From the IMG/VR virus record IMGVR_UViG_3300048855_000180, positions 1 through 43,321 of that record: a stretch of DNA of 43,321 bases. One strand, 5' to 3'. A program made the translations under genes and the position numbers. Shown here piece after piece: positions 1 to 15,744 of the stretch. This stretch comes from a virus (Duplodnaviria; Caudoviricetes). The notes under the pieces were generated by a model. That model was not told the DNA's origin. It was given only the letters and a program-made list of their open reading frames with translations, and made no database searches. Position 1 is the first letter of the stretch, and every line of letters starts with the position of its first letter.

Positions 1-1080
1 CTATCGTATCAACTTGATTTTGCTAGCCTTTCGGCCGTTTGTGCCAGTCTGTGACACGCCTTGTGACAACCGCAAAACGGCGGCTTCTGCGAGCACCTCT
101 TGGCGCGCGCTGGCGGTGTACAGCGAGACCATCGCGAGGCTCCTGTGGCCGGTGATGGCGGCGATCTCGCTGGCGCTGCACCCGGCCTCAGCAAGCCTGG
201 TGGCGGCAAGTTTCCGAAGCCCATGGATGTTCAAGCCGGGGCGCATGCCGAGGCGCGCAGCCTCCCGCTGGACCCGCATGCTGGCCCACTCCTTGCCCCA
301 GGGCTGACCGGTGGCGGAGGTCAGCATGAACACGCTGTCGCGGCTCCATGAGGCTAGCTCCTTGCGGAGTTCTGGCACTGCCGGGATGACGAGCGGGGTG
401 CCGGTTTTCTGCTGCTTGACCGCTAGCTTCGCCCCGTCAAAGGCGCTCCACAGCAGGCTGATCAGGTCGCCCCGGCGCTGGCCGGTGTGGTAGGCCAGGA
501 CCACCAGCCGCCGCTCAGGCTCCCGGAACTCCCGCATTGCCAGCCGGGCTTCCGCCTCTGTCCAGGCCAGCAGGTGGCCGCCCTTGAGCGGCTTGATCCT
601 AGCCGCGGGGTTGTACTCCAGCATGCCGCGGTCAACGCACCAGCCCAGGAAGGCGTGGGTCGAGGCGATGAAAACGTTAGCAGCGCCCGGCCCCTTGCCG
701 GCGGCGATCCCATCCCGCATCAGCAGGATCTTGCCGCGCTTCAGGCTGACCAGAGGCAAGTGGCCGATCTTCTCCAGGCCGATCATATATCTGGTGCGGC
801 CGGATTTCGTGGCCTCGCTAAGGCCGCGGTACTCAGGGGAGCGGCGCCATTCCGACAAGGCAGCCCCGATCGAGCCCTCGGGGCCGGCGGGCATCGGCGC
901 TCTGGCCGCTTTGAGCGCATCCAGAAACGCCGGGTCTGCCGGGTCAGGAAGCCGGGCGCCGCTGACCCGGCAGTACCAGTCGAGCCCCTTAGTCCCGTCT
1001 GCCCTTTGACGCGCGACCGCGCGGAGCCCTTTGGGTCTTGGTGGCAAGTTCGGTGGCCACGGCGGCGTAGAGTGCGTCAT
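1..1080 (-). CDS. int: Tyrosine recombinase / phage integrase
   Basis: Catalytic motifs TGQRRGD (R), KQQKTG (K), HGLRK (HxxR), ITGH...Y; start taken at ATG 1080 (the ORF track extends to 1116). Confidence 0.95.
   Translation of the reverse strand: MTHSTPPWPPNLPPRPKGLRAVARQRADGTKGLDWYCRVSGARLPDPADPAFLDALKAARAPMPAGPEGSIGAALSEWRRSPEYRGLSEATKSGRTRYMIGLEKIGHLPLVSLKRGKILLMRDGIAAGKGPGAANVFIASTHAFLGWCVDRGMLEYNPAARIKPLKGGHLLAWTEAEARLAMREFREPERRLVVLAYHTGQRRGDLISLLWSAFDGAKLAVKQQKTGTPLVIPAVPELRKELASWSRDSVFMLTSATGQPWGKEWASMRVQREAARLGMRPGLNIHGLRKLAATRLAEAGCSASEIAAITGHRSLAMVSLYTASARQEVLAEAAVLRLSQGVSQTGTNGRKASKIKLIR
40..68. repeat. Three TGTG(C/A)CA direct repeats in the integrase 3' end; candidate arm-type Int binding sites
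   Basis: TGTGCCA 40-46, TGTGACA 50-56, TGTGACA 62-68; adjacent palindrome ATCAACTTGAT 8-18 resembles an IHF site. Confidence 0.45.
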
Positions 1081-1276
1081 GCGATACGGCCTTTGCGCCC
1101 TCACCGGACATGGCATTGTCCAAGTCCTGAATATCGTACCGTGGGCTTTTCGCCCCTAGCGTCCGGCTCGGCGGCCTGATCTTGCCATCCTTTACGAGCT
1201 TTGACAGCTGGTGCGGATAGACCCCCAGCCGGTCAGCGGCCGCCGCAGGGGTCAGCCAGCGGGCTGTTTCAGCCAT
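989..1276 (-). CDS. xis: Excisionase-like HTH protein
   Basis: WLTPAAAADRLGV...LVKDGKI...PRYDIQDLD winged-HTH pattern; overlaps the int start. Confidence 0.75.
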   Translation of the reverse strand: MAETARWLTPAAAADRLGVYPHQLSKLVKDGKIRPPSRTLGAKSPRYDIQDLDNAMSGEGAKAVSHDALYAAVATELATKTQRAPRGRASKGRRD

Positions 1277-3798: not shown

Positions 3799-4279
3799 CG
3801 TGGCCTCCTGCGCGCTGGGTGGTTGTGGCCCGCCGGAACGAGGCCATGCGGGCTCCGGCCTTCTGCAGAATGTCGTAGTGGACAGCGGCGATCTCCCCGG
3901 CTGGCAGCCCGCGATCTCGTGCCCACTCGACGGCATGAGGCGCGCAGAACGCCACCACATGGCTCTTGAGGTCGGCAATCTCTTGCTTGACCCGTTCCCG
4001 CTCGGCCGCAGCACCATCCGCCAGCGCCGCCTCCACCAGCGCGGCGACTTCGGATGGCGTGCGGCAGGGGCCTCGGTACGAGAAGTGCAGGGCCATGCGT
4101 TCCGGGCTGTGCCCTACGTCCCCGTGCCACTCCATGCGGCCGTCCTCGCTGTAGGCGCCGGTCCATTCCAAGGCGGTAAGGACGCCGCACTGGCTAAGCC
4201 AATGCCACCCATCCCGCTCAGGGTTCAGCGGCAGACCAGGGGCGTCCGGCCACCCGCCGGGGTTCTCCTGCGCGGTCAT
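3791..4279 (-). CDS. Hypothetical protein (GWPDAPGLPLNPERDGWHWL)
   Basis: 162-aa ORF coupled in the operon. Confidence 0.7.
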   Translation of the reverse strand: MTAQENPGGWPDAPGLPLNPERDGWHWLSQCGVLTALEWTGAYSEDGRMEWHGDVGHSPERMALHFSYRGPCRTPSEVAALVEAALADGAAAERERVKQEIADLKSHVVAFCAPHAVEWARDRGLPAGEIAAVHYDILQKAGARMASFRRATTTQRAGGHDV

Positions 4280-4854
4280 GCCCGCGCCCCTTCCGAAGTC
4301 CGCGCCTGGTGCCGCTGGAGAACGATGCGCTTGGCTTCAGCGGCCCCCCTCAGCACCTCCAACATCTGCTCAGGGGTGAAGCCGAATTCCTGCTGCACGT
4401 TCGTTTCACTGGCCCCTCGCGTCAGCATGATCGCGCCTTCCTTCATGTCCTGGCGTAGGATCTGAGCGCGTACTCTTGCGTCAGACGCATCTGGCTTCGC
4501 CTTCCGGCAAACCACCGGGTGCATTGGCTTCCATTCCAAGTTGGACAGCCTGCAGTCCATGGAATCGCCGTTGATGTGGCGCGGCGTCGCGCGGGACATG
4601 TCGCCGACAAAGGCCATTAGCACGGACCGGTTGATGTAGATTAGCGAGCGCACCTTCCCTGGTCTCTGCATGTAGACCCGCGGGCTACCCGAGTGGCACT
4701 GCAGCGTCAGGATGCGTTCTGGCAAGATTAAGGGGGTCATGCGGCCGCCCCTCCGGCGGATCATGGTTTCGCGGCATACCGACCGGACACGTCCCTGGTC
4801 CGAAACCTCGTAGTCAGGGAAGCCGACGACGGGGCTCCATTGCTCGTCCATCAC
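4276..4854 (-). CDS. NUMOD4-HNH homing endonuclease-like protein
   Basis: EQWSPVVGFPDYEVSDQGRVRS (NUMOD4) and VLMAFVG...RHINGDSMDCRLSNLEW (HNH_3-like). Confidence 0.85.
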   Translation of the reverse strand: MMDEQWSPVVGFPDYEVSDQGRVRSVCRETMIRRRGGRMTPLILPERILTLQCHSGSPRVYMQRPGKVRSLIYINRSVLMAFVGDMSRATPRHINGDSMDCRLSNLEWKPMHPVVCRKAKPDASDARVRAQILRQDMKEGAIMLTRGASETNVQQEFGFTPEQMLEVLRGAAEAKRIVLQRHQARTSEGARA

Positions 4855-8335: not shown

Positions 8336-8830
8336 ATGTCCAATCGTGTGACCCTGGAGCAACTGGTCGAGATGGACAGCGAGGCGTTCAACGCGCTCCC
8401 CGCTGACCAGATCGAACTGCTGTTTGAAGACGTCGCCAGTCTGAAGGCTCGTGCCAAGCAGATGGACGACCGTCTTTTTTATCTCGTCGACAAGCGCTTC
8501 GCCGGCGCCGCAGCGGAACTGCGCCGCGCTGAAGGCAAGGATACTGGAACTGTTCGCATCGAGTTCTCCGGCCTCGTCCTGATAGCTGACCTCCCGAAGT
8601 CGGTAAGCTGGGATGAGGATGGGCTCTTGAACGTTGAAAGCCGTCTGCGTGAGCAGGGCGAGCCGGTCGACGACTACATCAAGATCCGTCGCACCGTAGC
8701 GGAAAGCGCGTTCACCGCGTGGCCGTCGTCGCTGCAGTCCATGTTCCTGCCGCATCGCACGGTCGGCACGGGCAAGCCCACCTACAAGATCGAGAAGGCC
8801 AAGGCCAACTCGCGCCGGAGGGCTGCCTGA
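8336..8830 (+). CDS. Conserved hypothetical phage protein upstream of Sak4
   Basis: GAGG RBS; 164-aa ORF with DLPKSVSWD motif; TGATG coupling to the next gene. Confidence 0.8.
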   Translation: MSNRVTLEQLVEMDSEAFNALPADQIELLFEDVASLKARAKQMDDRLFYLVDKRFAGAAAELRRAEGKDTGTVRIEFSGLVLIADLPKSVSWDEDGLLNVESRLREQGEPVDDYIKIRRTVAESAFTAWPSSLQSMFLPHRTVGTGKPTYKIEKAKANSRRRAA

Positions 8831-9627
8831 TGCCGATCTCTCTCGCTAACGTCCGCAGCGGGCAGGCGCAGAAGCCGCCGCGCATCCTGGTCTATGGCAC
8901 CCACGGTGTCGGCAAGACCAGCTTCGCCGCATCGGCCCCAAACCCGATCTTCCTGCAGCTGGAGGATGGCCTGGGCCAGATCGACGCGCCGACCTTCGGT
9001 CTGCTGAAGACCTTCGACGAGATCATGGAGGCGATCGGCTCCCTGTACTCGGAGGAGCACGACTTCAAGACGCTGGTGATCGACAGCCTCGACTGGGCGG
9101 AGCCCGCGGTGTGGGCTCAGGTCTGCACGGTGAACAAGTGGGACAACATCGAGCAGCCCGGTTACGGCAAGGGCTATATCGCTGCGCTCGACGCTTGGCG
9201 AATGATCTTCGACGGGCTGAACGCCCTGCGCGACGAGAAGAACATGACCATCGTCATGATCGCGCACTCTGACGTGAAGCGGTTCGACAGCCCTGAAACC
9301 GAACCCTATGACCGGTTTCAGATCAAGCTGCACAAAGGCGCTTCTGCCCTCGTCCAAGAGCACGTCGACTGTGTGTTCTTCGCCAACTACCGGGTTTCGA
9401 CCATCAAGACAGACGTTGGGTTCAAGAAGACCGTTGTGCGAGGTGTCGGAGGCGGGGAGCGTCTTCTCTACACCAATGAGCGCCCAGGGTTCTTGGCCAA
9501 GAACCGCTACGCGATGCCGTCGACCCTACCCATGAGCTGGGAAGCCGTCGCCGAGCACATTCCATTCCTGCGCGGCTCCGCCGCTCCTGCCGCCTCCGTC
9601 CCCAGCACCGAAGAAGTGGAAGCATAA
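8830..9627 (+). CDS. Sak4-like AAA ATPase / recombinase
   Basis: Walker A YGTHGVGKT, Walker B TLVIDSLD, AKNR motif. Confidence 0.88.
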   Translation: MPISLANVRSGQAQKPPRILVYGTHGVGKTSFAASAPNPIFLQLEDGLGQIDAPTFGLLKTFDEIMEAIGSLYSEEHDFKTLVIDSLDWAEPAVWAQVCTVNKWDNIEQPGYGKGYIAALDAWRMIFDGLNALRDEKNMTIVMIAHSDVKRFDSPETEPYDRFQIKLHKGASALVQEHVDCVFFANYRVSTIKTDVGFKKTVVRGVGGGERLLYTNERPGFLAKNRYAMPSTLPMSWEAVAEHIPFLRGSAAPAASVPSTEEVEA

Positions 9628-9629
9628 TC

Positions 9630-10142
9630 ATGGCCCAGCTTGGTCAGACCTTCGACGCCAACTCCGTCGCCCCCGCCACCCCGTTCGAGACCATCCCCGC
9701 GGGCAAGTATCTCGCCCAGATCGTCAACAGCGAGATGAAGTCGACCTCCACCGGCGGCGAGATGCTGGTGCTGGAGATCGAGATCGTCGACGGCGAATAC
9801 AGCAAGCGCCGGCTCTGGGATCGGCTGAACCTGGTCAACAGCAACGCGACCGCTGTTGAAATCGCCCAGCGTGCCCTGTCGTCCATCTGCCACGCCGTTG
9901 GCCAGATGACCGTGCAGGACAGCGAGCAGCTGCACTTCAAGCCCATGGCCGTGACCGTCAAGGTGCGCCCGGCCGGGCCGGACAAGAACGGCATCCACCG
10001 CGACGCGCAGAACGAGATCAAGGGCTACGAGGCGGCCAACGGTCAGCGGTCGGTGTCTGCGGCTCCGGCCTCGCGCCCCAACGCCACCAGCGCGACGAAG
10101 CCAGCCGGACAGATGCCCTGGCAGAAGCACAAGGCCGCCTGA
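9630..10142 (+). CDS. DUF669 family single-stranded DNA-binding protein
   Basis: FETIPAGKY...RRLWDRLNL...NEIKGY and C-terminal PW motif; follows Sak4. Confidence 0.85.
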   Translation: MAQLGQTFDANSVAPATPFETIPAGKYLAQIVNSEMKSTSTGGEMLVLEIEIVDGEYSKRRLWDRLNLVNSNATAVEIAQRALSSICHAVGQMTVQDSEQLHFKPMAVTVKVRPAGPDKNGIHRDAQNEIKGYEAANGQRSVSAAPASRPNATSATKPAGQMPWQKHKAA

Positions 10143-10228: not shown

Positions 10229-10987
10229 ATGGCCGTCTTGCCGCCTATGTCACCCCCGGACCCGACGTTGGAGGCCCTCGACCGCGCCATGGAGGCGCGC
10301 GCCCGGGCTACTCCGCGACGCAGGTATCTGGGTATGTCCAGCATCGCCGACCCTTGCTCGCGCAAGCTCTGGTACGGCTTGAACAGCAACGAGGACCCGG
10401 AGCCGTTTGCCGCCTCCACCCTGCGGCTGTTCGAGGACGGTCATCGGGGCGAGGATGTCATCGTCAGCTACCTGCGCATGGTGCCGGGGCTGCAGGTGCA
10501 TGTCCGCGACCCCGAGACCGGCAGCCAGTTCCACGTCGAGGACTTCGAGGGCCGCTTTGCCGGCAACCTCGACGGCGCCGTGCTTGGCTTACTGCAGGCC
10601 CCGACCACTTGGCACGTCTTCGAAGCCAAGATCTGCAACGAGAAGAAGTTCGCCAAGCTCAAGGCGCTGAAGGCAGAGCTTGGCGAGAAGCAAGCTCTGC
10701 AGGCCTGGGATCCGATCTACTACGGGCAGGCCATATCCTACATGTCGTACACCGGAATGAGCCGGCACTACCTGGTGGCCGGCACGCCTGGTGTCCGCGA
10801 ACTGGCTAGCGTCCGTACCAACGCGGACCCGGTCTATGCCGCGGAGCTTCGCTCCAAGGCAGAGCGGATCCTCGACGCGCGCTTCCCACCGGCGAAAGTC
10901 TCTAATGACCCGTCCTGGTACCAGTGCCGCTTCTGCCAGTGGCATGCCAAGTGCCATGGCGTGGCTGCTCAGGAGATGGCGGCATGA
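10229..10987 (+). CDS. Cas4-like PD-(D/E)XK exonuclease with Fe-S cysteines
   Basis: DPCSRKLWY, GNLDG, FEAK, GQAISYM and C-terminal CRFC...C. Confidence 0.85.
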   Translation: MAVLPPMSPPDPTLEALDRAMEARARATPRRRYLGMSSIADPCSRKLWYGLNSNEDPEPFAASTLRLFEDGHRGEDVIVSYLRMVPGLQVHVRDPETGSQFHVEDFEGRFAGNLDGAVLGLLQAPTTWHVFEAKICNEKKFAKLKALKAELGEKQALQAWDPIYYGQAISYMSYTGMSRHYLVAGTPGVRELASVRTNADPVYAAELRSKAERILDARFPPAKVSNDPSWYQCRFCQWHAKCHGVAAQEMAA

Positions 10988-11586
10988 ACGCCCTTTCTCC
11001 CCCGACCCTGCCGAACAAGGCAGAGGCGCTTCAGATTGGCGCCCTTCATTATGTGACTGGTACCCCGTGCGGGCGCGGGCATTTGTCGCCGCGATACACT
11101 CGTGGCGGCGCCTGTGTCGAGTGCGTGCGCTTGGTCCGGGGCGGGTGGCTCAAGACCCGCAAGCGTTCGCCCATAAATATGGATTTGGCTCTGGCTGCTC
11201 GCGATGCTGGGGAAACAACCTTTGTTCCGCTGAAGCCGTGTCCGAAGGGCCACAGCTTGCGTTTCATCGCTTCCAATAACTGCGTGCAATGCGATCTGAA
11301 TGCCCGCGCCCGAGACGTGTTGAAGCGTAAGTTCGCCCGTATCCGCAAGGAATATGGCCTTACGAACCAGCAATACCTTGATCTCGTAGCGGCACAGAAC
11401 AGTGCCTGCAGAATCTGCAGTAAAGTGGAAGCGGACCACTTCCGGCTGCACATAGATCATTGCCACAGCACATCCAAGGTGCGGGGCCTTCTCTGCGGTC
11501 CATGCAATCAGGGTATCGGCCTTCTCCGGCATTCAACGGAGATACTGCAGGCTGCCCAGAAGTACCTGCTGGAGTGCGGACAATGA
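10984..11586 (+). CDS. Endonuclease VII-family (His-Me) protein, probable homing endonuclease
   Basis: YGLT..Y..L...Q...CRIC...HIDHCH...VRGLLC..CNQGIG; two N-terminal PC.xGH...CVxC repeats; lower GC. Confidence 0.88.
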   Translation: MNALSPPTLPNKAEALQIGALHYVTGTPCGRGHLSPRYTRGGACVECVRLVRGGWLKTRKRSPINMDLALAARDAGETTFVPLKPCPKGHSLRFIASNNCVQCDLNARARDVLKRKFARIRKEYGLTNQQYLDLVAAQNSACRICSKVEADHFRLHIDHCHSTSKVRGLLCGPCNQGIGLLRHSTEILQAAQKYLLECGQ

Positions 11587-13172
11587 ACATCGCCATTCGC
11601 CCATATCAGCGTGGTGCTATCGATTCACTCTACTCTTGGTTCGATGAGCAGGCCGGCAACCCGTTAGTCGTCATCCCTACTGCGGGTGGGAAATCTCTTG
11701 TCATCTCAACTTTTATTAAAGAGGCAATTGAGGCCTATCCCGAGACAAGGATTTTAGTTCTCCAGCATGTCCGGGAACTGATCCTCCAGAACTTCCTGGA
11801 GCTTACCGGCTTCTGGCCGCAGGCCCCGGCGGGCATCTATTCCGCGGGCCTGGGACGCCGTGAGCTTCATACGCAGGTGGTCTTCGCCGGTATCCAGTCC
11901 ATCCACCGCCACGCGTATGGCTTGCAGCGGGTCGACCTGGTGCTGGTCGACGAGGCCCACCTGATCCCGCGGTCCTCGAATACCCTCTACCGCAAGTTCC
12001 TCGGCCAGCTGGCCGAGATCAATCCGTACATCAAGATCGTCGGGTTCACCGCCACGCCGTTCCGCCTGGATTCAGGTCTGCTGCACCGTGGCGAGGACGC
12101 CATGTTCAGCGACATCGCCTACGAGGCGAACATCCTGGACCTGATCCGGCAGGGTTATTTGGCTCGCCCGACCAGTCAGCGGGCCGACACCCAGATCGAC
12201 ACCTCGCAGGTCGCGACCAGAGGCGGCGAGTTCGTCCCCGGTGAGCTCGAGGCTGCCGCCATCCATCCCGAGGTTGTCGAGGCGGTCGCCGACGAGATCG
12301 TCCGGGCAGGGCAGGGGCGCCGTGGCTGGATCGTCTTCGGCTGCGGGATCAAGCATTGCACCATGCTGCGCGATGCCCTCCGGGCCCGGGGCATCACCTG
12401 CGAAAGCATCTTCGGCGACACGCCCGCCTTCGAGCGGGACCGGATTATCCAGGACTTCAAGGCCCAGAAGATCCAGGCCCTGTCCTCCATGAACGTGCTG
12501 ACGACCGGGTTCAACGCCCGGCACGTCGACCTCATCGCCCTGGCACGTCCCACCAAGTCGACCGGCCTTTACATCCAGATCGTCGGCCGCGGCACCCGGC
12601 TGTTCCCAGGCAAGGATGACTGTCTGGTGCTGGACTTTGGCGGCAACATCGCTCGCCACGGACCCCTCGATCAGCCCAAGTCGAAGAAGGACAAGCGGTC
12701 GATCGGTCCCCGCGAGGGCATGCCGGCAAAGATCTGCCAGCATTGCGAAGCCCGGAACGACATTCGGGCCCGTGAATGCCTCGACTGCGGCACCCCGTTC
12801 CCCGAGGTCGCGGCGCAGATCATCAGCACCAAGGCCACCACACTCGGCCTGCTCTCGGAAGACCAGATGCGGCCGCAGTGGGTCGACGTCGACGGCATCT
12901 CCTACCGGGCGCACTCCAAGCCGGGCAAGCCGACCTCTATGCGGGTCACCTACAGCTGCGGCCTGGTGCAGCATTCCGAGTGGGTCTGCCTGAATCACGA
13001 CGGATTTGCACGTCAGAAGGCGGTCCAGTGGTGGATCAAGCGGGCACCGGATGTGCCGGTCCCGAACAGCGTCGAAGAGGCCCTGCGGCTTCAGCACGTC
13101 CTCCGGCGGCCTCGTCAGATCGCAGTTCGCCCGGCAGGAAAGTTCACGGAAATTGTGGGTTCCGTCCTGTGA
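11583..13172 (+). CDS. SF2 helicase (RadD/YejH-like) with C-terminal Zn ribbon
   Basis: RPYQ, PTAGGKS, DEAH, TAT, QIVGRGTR, CQHC...CLDC. Confidence 0.93.
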   Translation: MNIAIRPYQRGAIDSLYSWFDEQAGNPLVVIPTAGGKSLVISTFIKEAIEAYPETRILVLQHVRELILQNFLELTGFWPQAPAGIYSAGLGRRELHTQVVFAGIQSIHRHAYGLQRVDLVLVDEAHLIPRSSNTLYRKFLGQLAEINPYIKIVGFTATPFRLDSGLLHRGEDAMFSDIAYEANILDLIRQGYLARPTSQRADTQIDTSQVATRGGEFVPGELEAAAIHPEVVEAVADEIVRAGQGRRGWIVFGCGIKHCTMLRDALRARGITCESIFGDTPAFERDRIIQDFKAQKIQALSSMNVLTTGFNARHVDLIALARPTKSTGLYIQIVGRGTRLFPGKDDCLVLDFGGNIARHGPLDQPKSKKDKRSIGPREGMPAKICQHCEARNDIRARECLDCGTPFPEVAAQIISTKATTLGLLSEDQMRPQWVDVDGISYRAHSKPGKPTSMRVTYSCGLVQHSEWVCLNHDGFARQKAVQWWIKRAPDVPVPNSVEEALRLQHVLRRPRQIAVRPAGKFTEIVGSVL

Positions 13173-13480
13173 TCGCCGTCACCTCGCCCAGCGGCACCCA
13201 GCTCGAGACCTTCCGGGCCCACCCGCTTGTCCAAGCCATCCTGCACGCTTTCCCAGGCGCGCAGATCCGAACCCCAAGAGAGGGCCTCATGATCGATGCG
13301 ACAGATCGGGAAATCGCCGCCCTTCAAGCGGCCTCCCCCCTGGCTGGTGAATACCTCGAGAGCATCGGCAAGACCGACATCGGCGCCATGAGCCTCGAGG
13401 AATGGATGACCTTCCTGGAGGTGGTGGTCACCGGCTTCCAGGACGCTCTCCGGATGCAGGTGGGGAGCCAATCAACGTGA
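13169..13480 (+). CDS. DUF6511-like protein with an N-terminal DnaX-tail-like peptide (alternative start ATG 13289)
   Basis: GTGA-coupled to the helicase stop; C-terminal AGEYLESIGKTD...EEWMTFLEVVVTGF; N-terminal HPLVQAILHAFPGAQI. Confidence 0.75.
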   Translation: MIAVTSPSGTQLETFRAHPLVQAILHAFPGAQIRTPREGLMIDATDREIAALQAASPLAGEYLESIGKTDIGAMSLEEWMTFLEVVVTGFQDALRMQVGSQST

Positions 13481-15744
13481 TGAGCTCCTTCCATGACTAC
13501 ATCAACCGGCGGAAAGACGGCGCGAACCCGATGGCGGACGCCGCGGTCTCGCTCGGCCTACCCGTGTTCCCCTGTGGCGCCGACAAGAAGCCGCTGACCA
13601 CCCACGGCTTCAAGGACGCGACCAACGATCCGGCGCGAATCCGCACCCTGTTCTCAGGCTCGGCCGCCGTGATGATCGGCGTGCCGACCGGTGCAGCCAC
13701 GGACGTCGTGGTGATCGACGTCGACCGCAAGGAGAATCGGCAGGGCGGTGCCTGGCTGGACGAGAACAGCCATCGCATGCCCCAGACCCGGACCATCCGC
13801 ACGGCGTCAGGCGGCCTGCACATCTACCTGCGCCACCCCGGGCAGCGGGTGAAGAACTCCAACGACAAGATCGCTCCCGGCATCGATGTGCGTGGCGACG
13901 GGGGATACGTCATCGTGCCTCCCAGCCCGGGCTACAGCCTTGCGGACGACGCACCCATGGCCGAGGTGCCGGAATGGCTCCTGGCCGTCCTGTGCCCGCC
14001 TGAGCCGGTTCCTGGGCCTGTTCCCGAGGTCCGTCGCCACACCCCGGCTTCGAACGGCGGAACGCCTTATGGCTTGAAGGCGCTCGAAGACGAATGCGCG
14101 GCGATCAGCAGGGCTTACTTCGGCCAACAGGAAGCCACCCTCAACGCCGCCGGGCTCAAGATCGGCGCTCTGGTGGCCGGCGGTGAGCTGGAAGCAGGAC
14201 CCGCCTTGGCTGACCTGCTGGCGGCGGCACGGTCCATGCCCTCCCAGCCTGGCAAGAAGCCCTGGCATCCTTCGGAATTGGAGAAGAAGGCCCGGCGGGC
14301 GTTCGAGGATGGATCGCGCAAGCCGCGCTCGGCCCCCGATCAGCCCCACACCCATTCCGACCTGGAGACCCATCCGGCTGCTGTGTTCTTGGCTAAGGTC
14401 GCCGAGAAGGCCAAACGAAATCCAGCGCCGGCAGTGCCAGTTGATCCTGAGATTATGGAGCTGGATGGTGTTCTAAAACTGTTCGTTGACCATTGCGAGC
14501 GCACGGCCATCAGCCCTCAGCCGTTCCTCGCGTTGGCCGCGGCAATCTGTCTCGTCGGAGTTCTGGCGGGCCGCAAGTACAGGACGACAACTGACCTCCG
14601 CACCAATGTCTACGCCGTCGGAATCGCCGACAGCGGCGGGGGCAAGGATCATGCTCGGAAGCAGATCAGGAAGGTGCTCTACGCGGCCGATCTTCAAAAG
14701 TATTTGGGCGGTTCAGACATTGCATCCAGCGCCGGCATGCGAACGGCTTTGCAACGGCACCCTGCGACCGTCTTTCTGGTGGACGAATTCGGGAACTGGC
14801 TGAGCGGTGTGCTTGGTGACAAGGCCCCGGCGCACAAAGCTCAAATCGCTGCCTTAATGAAGGAACTCTATAGCTCAGCCAATACAATCCTGAGCGGCAT
14901 CGAGTACGCCGATCAGACGAAGCAGGGCCGGCCTCGGGAGGATATTCATCAGCCGCACGCCTGCCTGTACGCGACAAGCACGCCGAGGCAGTTTTGGGCA
15001 GCTGTTGGAGGCGCTAACCTCGAAGACGGCTTGATGGCCCGCATGCTCTTGTTCCTAAGCCCGCAGAGCTATCCAGACGAACAGGAGCTGGAATTAGCGG
15101 AGCCCAGCGCCGAGCTTGTCGCGGCTTTGAAGGCGATCGTCTTGGGCCAGGGTCAGCATGACCAAGGCGGCAACATGCCCGAAATCTTCAGCCCGGTCAT
15201 GGAGTCTGGCACCGAACTGATTCCCTACACCGTACCGGAAACACCCGAGGCAACACAGGAAAGGCGAGCGCTCCGTCGCGAGCAGCTGGATAAACAGCGA
15301 AAGGCTGAAGGCACCTGGATCACGTCTATCGAGGGGCGTTTTGCCGAGAACGCAATGAAGCTGGCCCTGGTGCGAGCAATCAGCCGAGACCCTGGAGACC
15401 CCATCATCCAGGCTGCTGACGTGGCTTGGGGCAGGGCCGTAACGCGGCACTGCCTCGATACCCTGCTGCGCGAGGCGGGGCAGAACGTGGCGGAAACGGA
15501 ATACGAGAAGAAGACCCAGCGGCTGATGAAGATCATCCGCCAACACGGGCCGGTCACGGATCACGCGATCTTCGACCGCCATCGTTTTGGACATTCATCT
15601 CGGGAACGCGCCGAGATGCTGAACGACCTCATCCGTCTCGGGATGGTCGTGGCCATCGAGCCTGATCCCAGCAAGCCCGGCCCGAAACGGGTCAAGTACA
15701 TGATCGCCCCAGCGGCTGGCCCCGTCGACGATGTGGGGAATTAG
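13480..15744 (+). CDS. Bifunctional primase-polymerase (AEP) fused to a DUF3987-like helicase domain
   Basis: PVFPC..DKKP, VIDVD, RTASGGLHIY, DVRGDGGY; C-terminal IADSGGGKD and LVDEFG. Confidence 0.9.
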   Translation: MSSFHDYINRRKDGANPMADAAVSLGLPVFPCGADKKPLTTHGFKDATNDPARIRTLFSGSAAVMIGVPTGAATDVVVIDVDRKENRQGGAWLDENSHRMPQTRTIRTASGGLHIYLRHPGQRVKNSNDKIAPGIDVRGDGGYVIVPPSPGYSLADDAPMAEVPEWLLAVLCPPEPVPGPVPEVRRHTPASNGGTPYGLKALEDECAAISRAYFGQQEATLNAAGLKIGALVAGGELEAGPALADLLAAARSMPSQPGKKPWHPSELEKKARRAFEDGSRKPRSAPDQPHTHSDLETHPAAVFLAKVAEKAKRNPAPAVPVDPEIMELDGVLKLFVDHCERTAISPQPFLALAAAICLVGVLAGRKYRTTTDLRTNVYAVGIADSGGGKDHARKQIRKVLYAADLQKYLGGSDIASSAGMRTALQRHPATVFLVDEFGNWLSGVLGDKAPAHKAQIAALMKELYSSANTILSGIEYADQTKQGRPREDIHQPHACLYATSTPRQFWAAVGGANLEDGLMARMLLFLSPQSYPDEQELELAEPSAELVAALKAIVLGQGQHDQGGNMPEIFSPVMESGTELIPYTVPETPEATQERRALRREQLDKQRKAEGTWITSIEGRFAENAMKLALVRAISRDPGDPIIQAADVAWGRAVTRHCLDTLLREAGQNVAETEYEKKTQRLMKIIRQHGPVTDHAIFDRHRFGHSSRERAEMLNDLIRLGMVVAIEPDPSKPGPKRVKYMIAPAAGPVDDVGN

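Follow-up and report, generated by a model that had tools for sequence, protein, structure and literature searches.

The closest described counterpart of the element reported here is the tail of E. coli tau. Tau binding maps to alpha residues 1079-1160 (PMC4703070), and the tau segment after helix 6 has been proposed to sit on alpha as a helix-loop-helix, in which D621-N623 form the turn and I624-F631 a helix (PMC1888804). In that study, substitutions cost 5.4 (L627P), 4.1 (S617P) and 3.8 kcal/mol (F631I) of alpha binding, 6.3 kcal/mol comes from the last 7 residues, and a C-terminal extension weakens binding. A 32-residue tail peptide binds alpha at 3.8 uM, as compared with 0.13-0.26 nM for the domain, and the isolated peptide is given as a 30,000-fold weaker binder. 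A construct shortened by 7 residues, ending at D636 (6.7 uM), is lethal even at low expression, and one shortened by 11 residues, losing A633 and L635, is not lethal (PMC1888804).

Few systems are known for how polymerase-less phages link to or disable host Pol III. N4 gp8 acts on the clamp loader. Twort Gp168 acts on the beta-clamp (PMC8565349), S. aureus DnaI is bound by a phage protein (PMC4887207), lambda P acts on host replication (PMC3640518), Mu uses the beta clamp (PMC12867686), and SPP1, with its G36P/G40P system, copies its DNA with PolC, DnaE, the clamp and the tau complex of its host (PMC3561973). In the literature searched, phage effectors attack at the clamp, at the helicase or helicase loader, or through SSB. 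The protein described here would resemble these effectors in being a small early protein that acts on the host replication machinery. None of them is known to copy the tau tail or to target the tau-DnaE joint, whereas here a host interface is copied in sequence, as a motif that moves between carriers.

The window, that is the whole stretch of DNA analysed, is a 43,321-base provirus record with a CheckV completeness estimate of 65%. In addition to an integrase, it carries a repressor-like gene, a rightward replication operon, a terminase and a portal (Table 1). The operon order is Sak4-like ATPase, DUF669 SSB, Cas4-like nuclease, endonuclease VII, SF2 helicase, a 103-aa ORF and prim-pol/DUF3987, and overlapping gene junctions are also found at several other places in it. 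An initial annotation of this DNA had listed a phage helicase beside prim-pol and SSB; the closest match of this helicase is RadD (SF2), it is not a DnaB-type replicative helicase, and the NCBIfam RadD match (E 1.3e-89) lies below that model's cut-off. The same annotation saw no replicative polymerase, in agreement with our search of the window, in which no PolA, PolB or DnaE gene was found. DNA synthesis is established for the prim-pol family, and the prim-pol of the window may itself synthesise DNA. The NUMOD4-HNH gene (4276-4854) and the endonuclease VII-type gene (10984-11586) are probably mobile endonucleases.

Table 1. Coordinates of features in the window.
Feature	Position	Strand	Evidence or remark
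Integrase	1-1116		
Sak4-like single-strand annealing ATPase	8830..9627	+	
DUF669 single-stranded DNA-binding protein	9630..10142	+	
Cas4-like / PD-(D/E)XK exonuclease	10229..10987	+	
Endonuclease VII-type nuclease	10984..11586	+	Absent among annotated genes of the R. mucosa module
SF2 helicase, RadD-like, with zinc ribbon	11583..13172	+	NCBIfam RadD E 1.3e-89 (below model cut-off), PHROG 16, Pfam
Long 103-aa ORF with DUF6511 behind a tau-tail-like extension	13169..13480	+	GTG start overlaps helicase stop (GTGA)
DnaX (tau) tail-like motif, residues 11-33	13199..13267	+	Pfam DUF3646 (below cut-off), profile-profile match, AlphaFold2 model
Shine-Dalgarno-like run AAGAGAGGG of internal start	13276..13284	+	Sequence; 4-base match
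DUF6511 domain, possible short 63-aa isoform, helical	13289..13480	+	Without the acidic-Pro-Phe tail of many relatives
Prim-pol fused to DUF3987	13480..15744	+	Start overlaps DUF6511 stop

The ORF has 103 codons from GTG 13169 to its terminator TGA (13478-13480), and encodes DUF6511 plus a 40-residue N-terminal extension. Its reading in the initial annotation is confirmed: the GTG (13169-13171) overlaps the helicase TGA (13170-13172), the stretch quoted there, FRAHPLVQAILHAFPGAQI, forms residues 15-33, and the DUF6511 domain has its own ATG at 13289, preceded by the Shine-Dalgarno-like AAGAGAGGG run. Residues 41-98 match PF20121 with E 1.8e-19 (70.3 bits, above the curated cut-off of 28), and the gene lies between a phage SF2 helicase and a primase; by this domain and by this location, the ORF is a full member of the DUF6511 family (PF20121, PHROG 19707). 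Two isoforms, from the 13169 and 13289 starts, are plausible from these signals. The Shine-Dalgarno match of the upstream GTG is 3 bases, and RNA structure at either start does not exceed chance (z 1.21 and -0.03). Translation of the long form is presumed, with all 21 syntenic loci also keeping an internal start. No RNA run was among the matches listed for the sequencing runs checked for this sequence. One related DNA contig was found in them, with 3 differences in the ORF, one altering residue 17, too few for a selection test. A related phage contig differs densely from window positions 12989-13160, across the helicase's last 57 codons, and shows only 3 differences over the next 310 bases, suggesting a recombination boundary just upstream of the GTG start.

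The N-terminal extension matches the tail of DnaX. Residues 11-33 align with DUF3646 (PF12362) positions 89-111 of 114 with E 8.8e-6, the match to the N-terminus that the initial annotation had anticipated, although its 26.4 bits fall below the family cut-off of 30.2 bits. The alphaproteobacterial DnaX model PRK09111 matches the peptide with E 0.0012, and no further family was matched by residues 1-40 in either of these two scans. The peptide fits the conserved alphaproteobacterial DnaX pattern (H/D)PLVxx(I/V)LxxFPGAxI, and is identical at 17/21 residues to the nearest of 36 DnaX tails, from Acetobacterales (mean 11.6 over the 36). The ORF is not itself a DnaX or DUF3646 member, as it covers only those 23 positions, below cut-off; AAA+ clamp-loader domains and a folded domain V core are absent from it, and its model is all helical. 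Thus, compared with alphaproteobacterial DnaX, the phage keeps the last fifth of the DUF3646 profile and lacks the other four fifths. Many phage copies of the motif (15/26) carry Trp where Phe is invariant in DnaX (36/36 tails). The likeness proposed in the initial annotation is therefore real, specific and conserved, but its placement at the extreme DnaX end is not: 12-60 residues separate the motif Phe from the stop in the 36 alphaproteobacterial tails.

The likeness is specific to DnaX, because reciprocal profile-profile, six-frame genome and database-wide searches all return DnaX. A profile of 24 motif-bearing DUF6511 proteins matches one of 37 alphaproteobacterial DnaX domains over 26 columns (96.6%, E 6.5e-10). 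In six frames, the 24-protein profile matches 270/401 Acetobacterales genomes, mostly once each; these matches involve positions 1-30 of the profile and lie in reading frames as long as DnaX, and all seven that were opened are DnaX tails. A 6-row profile of the phage peptide, also searched in six frames, has matches in 157/301 alphaproteobacterial genomes. Its best match coincides with the DUF3646 match in 30/30 genomes with both positions listed, out of 32 with a match in which PF12362 was searched as well; the unpublished genomes G440 and G656 are counted here, and without G440 the coincidence is 29/29. Six candidate non-DnaX genome matches were rejected, one as a frameshifted dnaX and five for lack of a credible motif. 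In one assembly (G539:C6:1724200-1732200, L447), dnaX seems to be split over several frames. A 10-sequence phage profile was run against 5.8 billion sequences, with 727 of 8,000 candidates scored; among the 120 best matches listed, 117 are DUF3646-bearing proteins, and the other three are a relative of the window's own protein, a NinB carrier and an HNH-like carrier. With residues 1-40 as a single sequence, a search against longer proteins gave no match, although the 10-sequence profile did. No clear relative of the ORF was found among GenBank phages, nor any relative of the primase among viral contigs.

Among 149 representatives of DUF6511 (the best 150 of 291 at 50% identity, a ranking that favours motif carriers, minus one junk entry), the N-terminus is the motif in 24, a zinc finger in 56, called short in 53 and something else in 16. 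The junk entry, a 1933-aa repeat translation (P0022), was removed from all counts. Among a set of 80 viral loci, only two carry the motif. The commonest N-terminus is thus a four-cysteine zinc finger (weak YacG-like matches in 2/28 scanned), where the window has the tau-like motif. DUF3646 is matched at E<=1 by 13/25 motif proteins, with no match in the other 12, and by 0/32 DUF6511 proteins with other N-termini (4 + 28 scanned). A tree of 73 DUF6511 cores, short and other forms excluded, intermixes motif with zinc-finger forms (12 changes; 21 on average, and at least 16, after shuffling); with 55 columns and weak supports, it does not establish repeated gains. In two proteins (P0080, P0136), DUF6511 is fused in frame with the downstream primase (Pfam for P0080), suggesting a joint function. 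The C-terminus is Pro-aromatic in 72/149 representatives, 58 of them with an acidic residue just before. Many of these ends are acidic-Ile/Val-Pro-Phe and adjoin a RadD-like helicase (e.g. P0045, P0134, L216, L287); we take them to resemble the bacterial SSB tail, possibly a second replisome mimic in the family.

The conservation in syntenic phages that the initial annotation named as a check is found at 21 distinct loci by pattern searches (7/20 metagenome pattern matches were out of frame and were dropped). In 20/21, the gene follows the helicase, and a long primase-type ORF is mostly downstream; in the remaining one (L307), no upstream ORF was found. One syntenic locus belongs to Roseomonas mucosa AD2, for which RefSeq annotates the long form (WP_168550287.1), its start codon overlapping the stop of the helicase. 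The hosts suggested by this locus are Acetobacteraceae-like. The AD2 module (L453:11933-17224) is on a 416-kb record labelled plasmid, and has a shortened prim-pol gene followed by an IS21 element.

Overlapping start codons are present in all 19 distinct loci compared. Relative to the helicase, 12 are in the +1 frame and 6, including the window, in the +2 frame, and one has no upstream ORF. The ORF is therefore a separate gene and not a frameshift product; a programmed frameshift fusion to the helicase was rejected, there being no single conserved frame relation. At one type of locus (L286:695-730, minus strand), the final codons of the helicase, read in the +1 frame, encode the motif's first helix. 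At another (L288:4945-5005, minus strand), a similar lead lies wholly past the helicase stop, as if a short duplication had abolished the overlap. The idea that some relatives have no internal start proved wrong: on DNA, 21/21 syntenic loci keep an in-frame ATG or GTG downstream of the motif, and for 17 of them the Shine-Dalgarno match is 4-5 bases. Where the linker is short, the codons for Pro-Gly-Ala also serve as the internal start's Shine-Dalgarno sequence.

Across 28 loci, codons show synonymous variation and each other frame has stops in 14/28. The entropy is highest at third codon positions (1.62, against 1.03 and 0.84), a comparison that is partly circular for loci found by degenerate patterns. 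These sequence comparisons indicate that the motif is conserved as protein. A chance likeness in an untranslated spacer is very improbable and already largely refuted. The match is only 23 residues long and under the Pfam cut-off, and a degenerate DNA pattern did pick up 27 non-coding look-alike loci. Against this, the motif is conserved in 24 clusters at 50% identity and on several other carriers, DUF3646 separates motif carriers from relatives with other N-termini, and the database-wide E-values reach 2e-8.

The motif is also found on phage proteins unrelated to DUF6511. Among 65 pattern matches there were six non-DUF6511 carrier loci, 5 more motif-DUF6511 genes and the 27 non-coding look-alikes, the rest being noise. 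The motif lies ~25-30 codons upstream of the usual start of NinB (L247, P0172), of a PDDEXK_14 nuclease (L248) and of an unnamed 130-aa protein (L170). It forms the end of an 83-aa Cys-rich ORF (L241, L270), is C-terminal on a protein that we take to be HNH-like from its motifs (P0251), and lies within a 59-aa ORF (L256). L247, L248, L170, L241 and L256 each match the end of DUF3646 with E 6e-6 to 8e-5. All carriers of known context are in replication or early regions. The motif thus appears, by sequence, to be a movable module on unrelated phage proteins. Genes with SSB-like ends are immediately upstream of L247 and L248. A description of L170 as UvsY-like was dropped, having no Pfam or PHROGs support.

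A regulatory leader or relic, in which a captured piece of host dnaX binds nothing and is kept for helicase coupling or for the DUF6511 ribosome-binding site, is rather improbable. It would account for the short-linker Pro-Gly-Ala codons CCA GGA GC, which give an AGGAG run 5-7 codons upstream of the internal start, and for the frequent use of TTG or GTG as the upstream start, with poor Shine-Dalgarno matches. However, each of the four Pro codons and each of the four Ala codons occurs, the middle position has Gly, Asp and Glu codons, and third codon positions are the most variable, with the circularity given above. In the window and R. mucosa, the motif is 12-13 codons from the internal start, and the buried-face residues HPLV..IL are retained as in DnaX. 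Moreover, the C-terminal or stand-alone placements (P0251, L241, L256) cannot lead DUF6511.

AlphaFold2 models the 103-aa ORF with a helix at 9-17, a turn, a helix at 19-27, and then FPGA and an extended stretch (pLDDT 87-94 for residues 11-30). The donor domain, modelled from a 37-sequence DnaX alignment (mean pLDDT 94.5), has an alpha/beta core, a long helix at 76-93, a turn and a helix at 95-103. For this domain, two fold searches both rank E. coli tau domain V (5fku_E) first, with E 2.5e-3 in one and Z 6.9 (a value in the range typical of common folds), rmsd 2.7 and 96 aligned in the other; the best PDB matches, with modest scores, are 5fku_E, 5fkv_E and 2aya. The alphaproteobacterial donor domain thus shares the domain V fold. 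By sequence, neither the peptide nor one DnaX tail nor the DnaX alignment retrieved tau from the PDB. The 103-aa model had no clear match by fold (the highest Z, 5.9, lay on the DUF6511 helices), a BFVD search reached E 0.0096 with unnamed small proteins, and the ESM Atlas had no usable match.

The register of the motif is not given by the fold superposition, whose end is near model residue 102 / tau residue 623; it was aligned by hand. The hand register puts F28 on F631, and H18, V21 and I24 on D621, I624 and L627; with one residue inserted, A31 and I33 fall on A633 and L635. In this hand alignment, the positions key to E. coli alpha binding (V21, I24, F28, A31, I33) are kept in the phage peptide. 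On the models, therefore, the motif probably sits where the alpha-binding helix-turn-helix lies in tau. Both it and the E. coli segment (DnaX ~614-636; PMC1888804, PMC4703070) have a helix-turn-helix, an aromatic and a small-x-hydrophobic end. Unlike tau, the 23-residue phage piece has no domain V core, DnaB-binding domain or clamp-loader ATPase, is N-terminal on a phage protein, and has no clear counterpart of the last 7 tau residues.

The phage peptide probably binds DnaE, whether as decoy or as tether. The initial annotation had raised both tethering of host DnaE and uncoupling of the host replisome, from this locus and without the motif's occurrence on other carriers. Another partner of the tail is decidedly improbable, for instance ClpXP, with the peptide as a degron or protease decoy. 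ClpXP trims Caulobacter tau to gamma by C-terminal removal (bioRxiv 10.1101/2022.11.10.516041), a degron would account for the indifference to carrier, and the literature searched yielded no alphaproteobacterial demonstration of motif-DnaE binding. However, ClpXP recognition is at Ala544-Ala545 (bioRxiv 10.1101/2022.11.10.516041), whereas the motif aligns at 563-589 of the 616-position alphaproteobacterial DnaX model (numbering only roughly comparable) and, in the hand register, occupies the alpha-binding position of E. coli tau.

A decoy, in which the tau-tail mimic of the long isoform competes with tau on DnaE, is favoured tentatively, at somewhat less than an even chance. The long isoform would be made through translational coupling to the helicase and would bear a short linear mimic of the tau tail. 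This peptide would fold as a helix-turn-helix on the tau-binding C-terminal domain of host Pol III alpha (DnaE) and compete with tau there. During lytic development, the Pol III core would be loosened from the host clamp loader and DnaB, chromosome replication would stall, and polymerase and nucleotides would be freed. DUF6511 would be mainly a carrier, with the two starts setting the dose. In Caulobacter, excess tau C-terminal domain may titrate DnaE (bioRxiv 10.1101/2022.11.10.516041). Against a decoy, a phage without PolA, PolB or DnaE may itself need an intact Pol III holoenzyme.

A tether is unlikely. Here the peptide would bind DnaE and DUF6511 would bind the RadD-like helicase, the prim-pol or SSB, standing in for tau in delivering host Pol III core to the phage's primers or D-loops. 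This fits the position of the gene after the helicase in 20/21 syntenic loci, mostly before a long primase-type ORF, the location of all carriers of known context in replication or early regions, and a micromolar affinity, which suits tethering. PolA, PolB or DnaE was found in 0/18 motif-carrier records, of which only two are at least 90% complete; the comparison covered motif carriers alone, so that this absence does not set them apart, and a prim-pol that possibly synthesises DNA itself lessens the need. Many relatives end in Pro-aromatic (72/149), 58 of them after an acidic residue as in an SSB tail, next to a RadD-like helicase, and a direct interaction with SSB is described for E. coli RadD (PMC10238739), but the window and R. 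mucosa proteins have no such tail. Furthermore, no DUF6511 partner is known, a zinc finger can take the place of the motif, and the motif is also found on unrelated carriers and in the 59-aa ORF. The decoy is ranked over the tether because the carriers are unrelated and the motif is at either end or nearly alone, and because in E. coli toxicity is seen with a micromolar binder that has the same end position. It is likewise favoured over a dedicated helicase-primase adaptor because the motif is a movable module on unrelated proteins.

A broader reading, standing just short of an even chance, is that of a mobile "tau-tag" of Alphaproteobacteria phages: a captured DnaE-binding motif on replication and recombination proteins (DUF6511, NinB, nucleases, microproteins) that would seize the Pol III core from the clamp loader for phage forks and recombination intermediates, with dual starts giving the dose. 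If true, such a tag would represent a class of replisome mimicry not yet reported, directed at the tau-alpha joint, and would offer a natural peptide lead against this interface. The full-text literature searched, with subscription journals mostly outside it, held no paper naming DUF6511 or DUF3646. In the titles and abstract starts listed, no phage tau-tail mimic was described, in keeping with the claim of the initial annotation that the mechanism is undescribed. The tau-tail motif is real, conserved and not found in print, and its proposed target is well motivated. A copy of the tau tail would add to the known phage targets the tau-DnaE joint, which couples the polymerase to the helicase and clamp loader. 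It would also give a first functional handle on DUF6511 and points to residues probably used by alphaproteobacterial tau on DnaE, and the natural Phe-to-Trp variants would illustrate short-peptide competition at an interface considered an antibacterial target.

The non-coding look-alikes form a separate family (L232; 27/44 loci of one DNA pattern), rejected as motif carriers because they have identical codons and no start. L232:3900-4100 and 26 other viral loci (L233-L275) share a conserved intergenic DNA element with repeated TGGACAA/TTGACAA boxes and CATAAT. In this element, a TCCTTTCC stretch is complementary to the GGAAAGGA ribosome-binding site of a ~720-800-codon gene, with a hairpin between them, and the whole looks like a promoter plus a leader RNA masking the ribosome-binding site.
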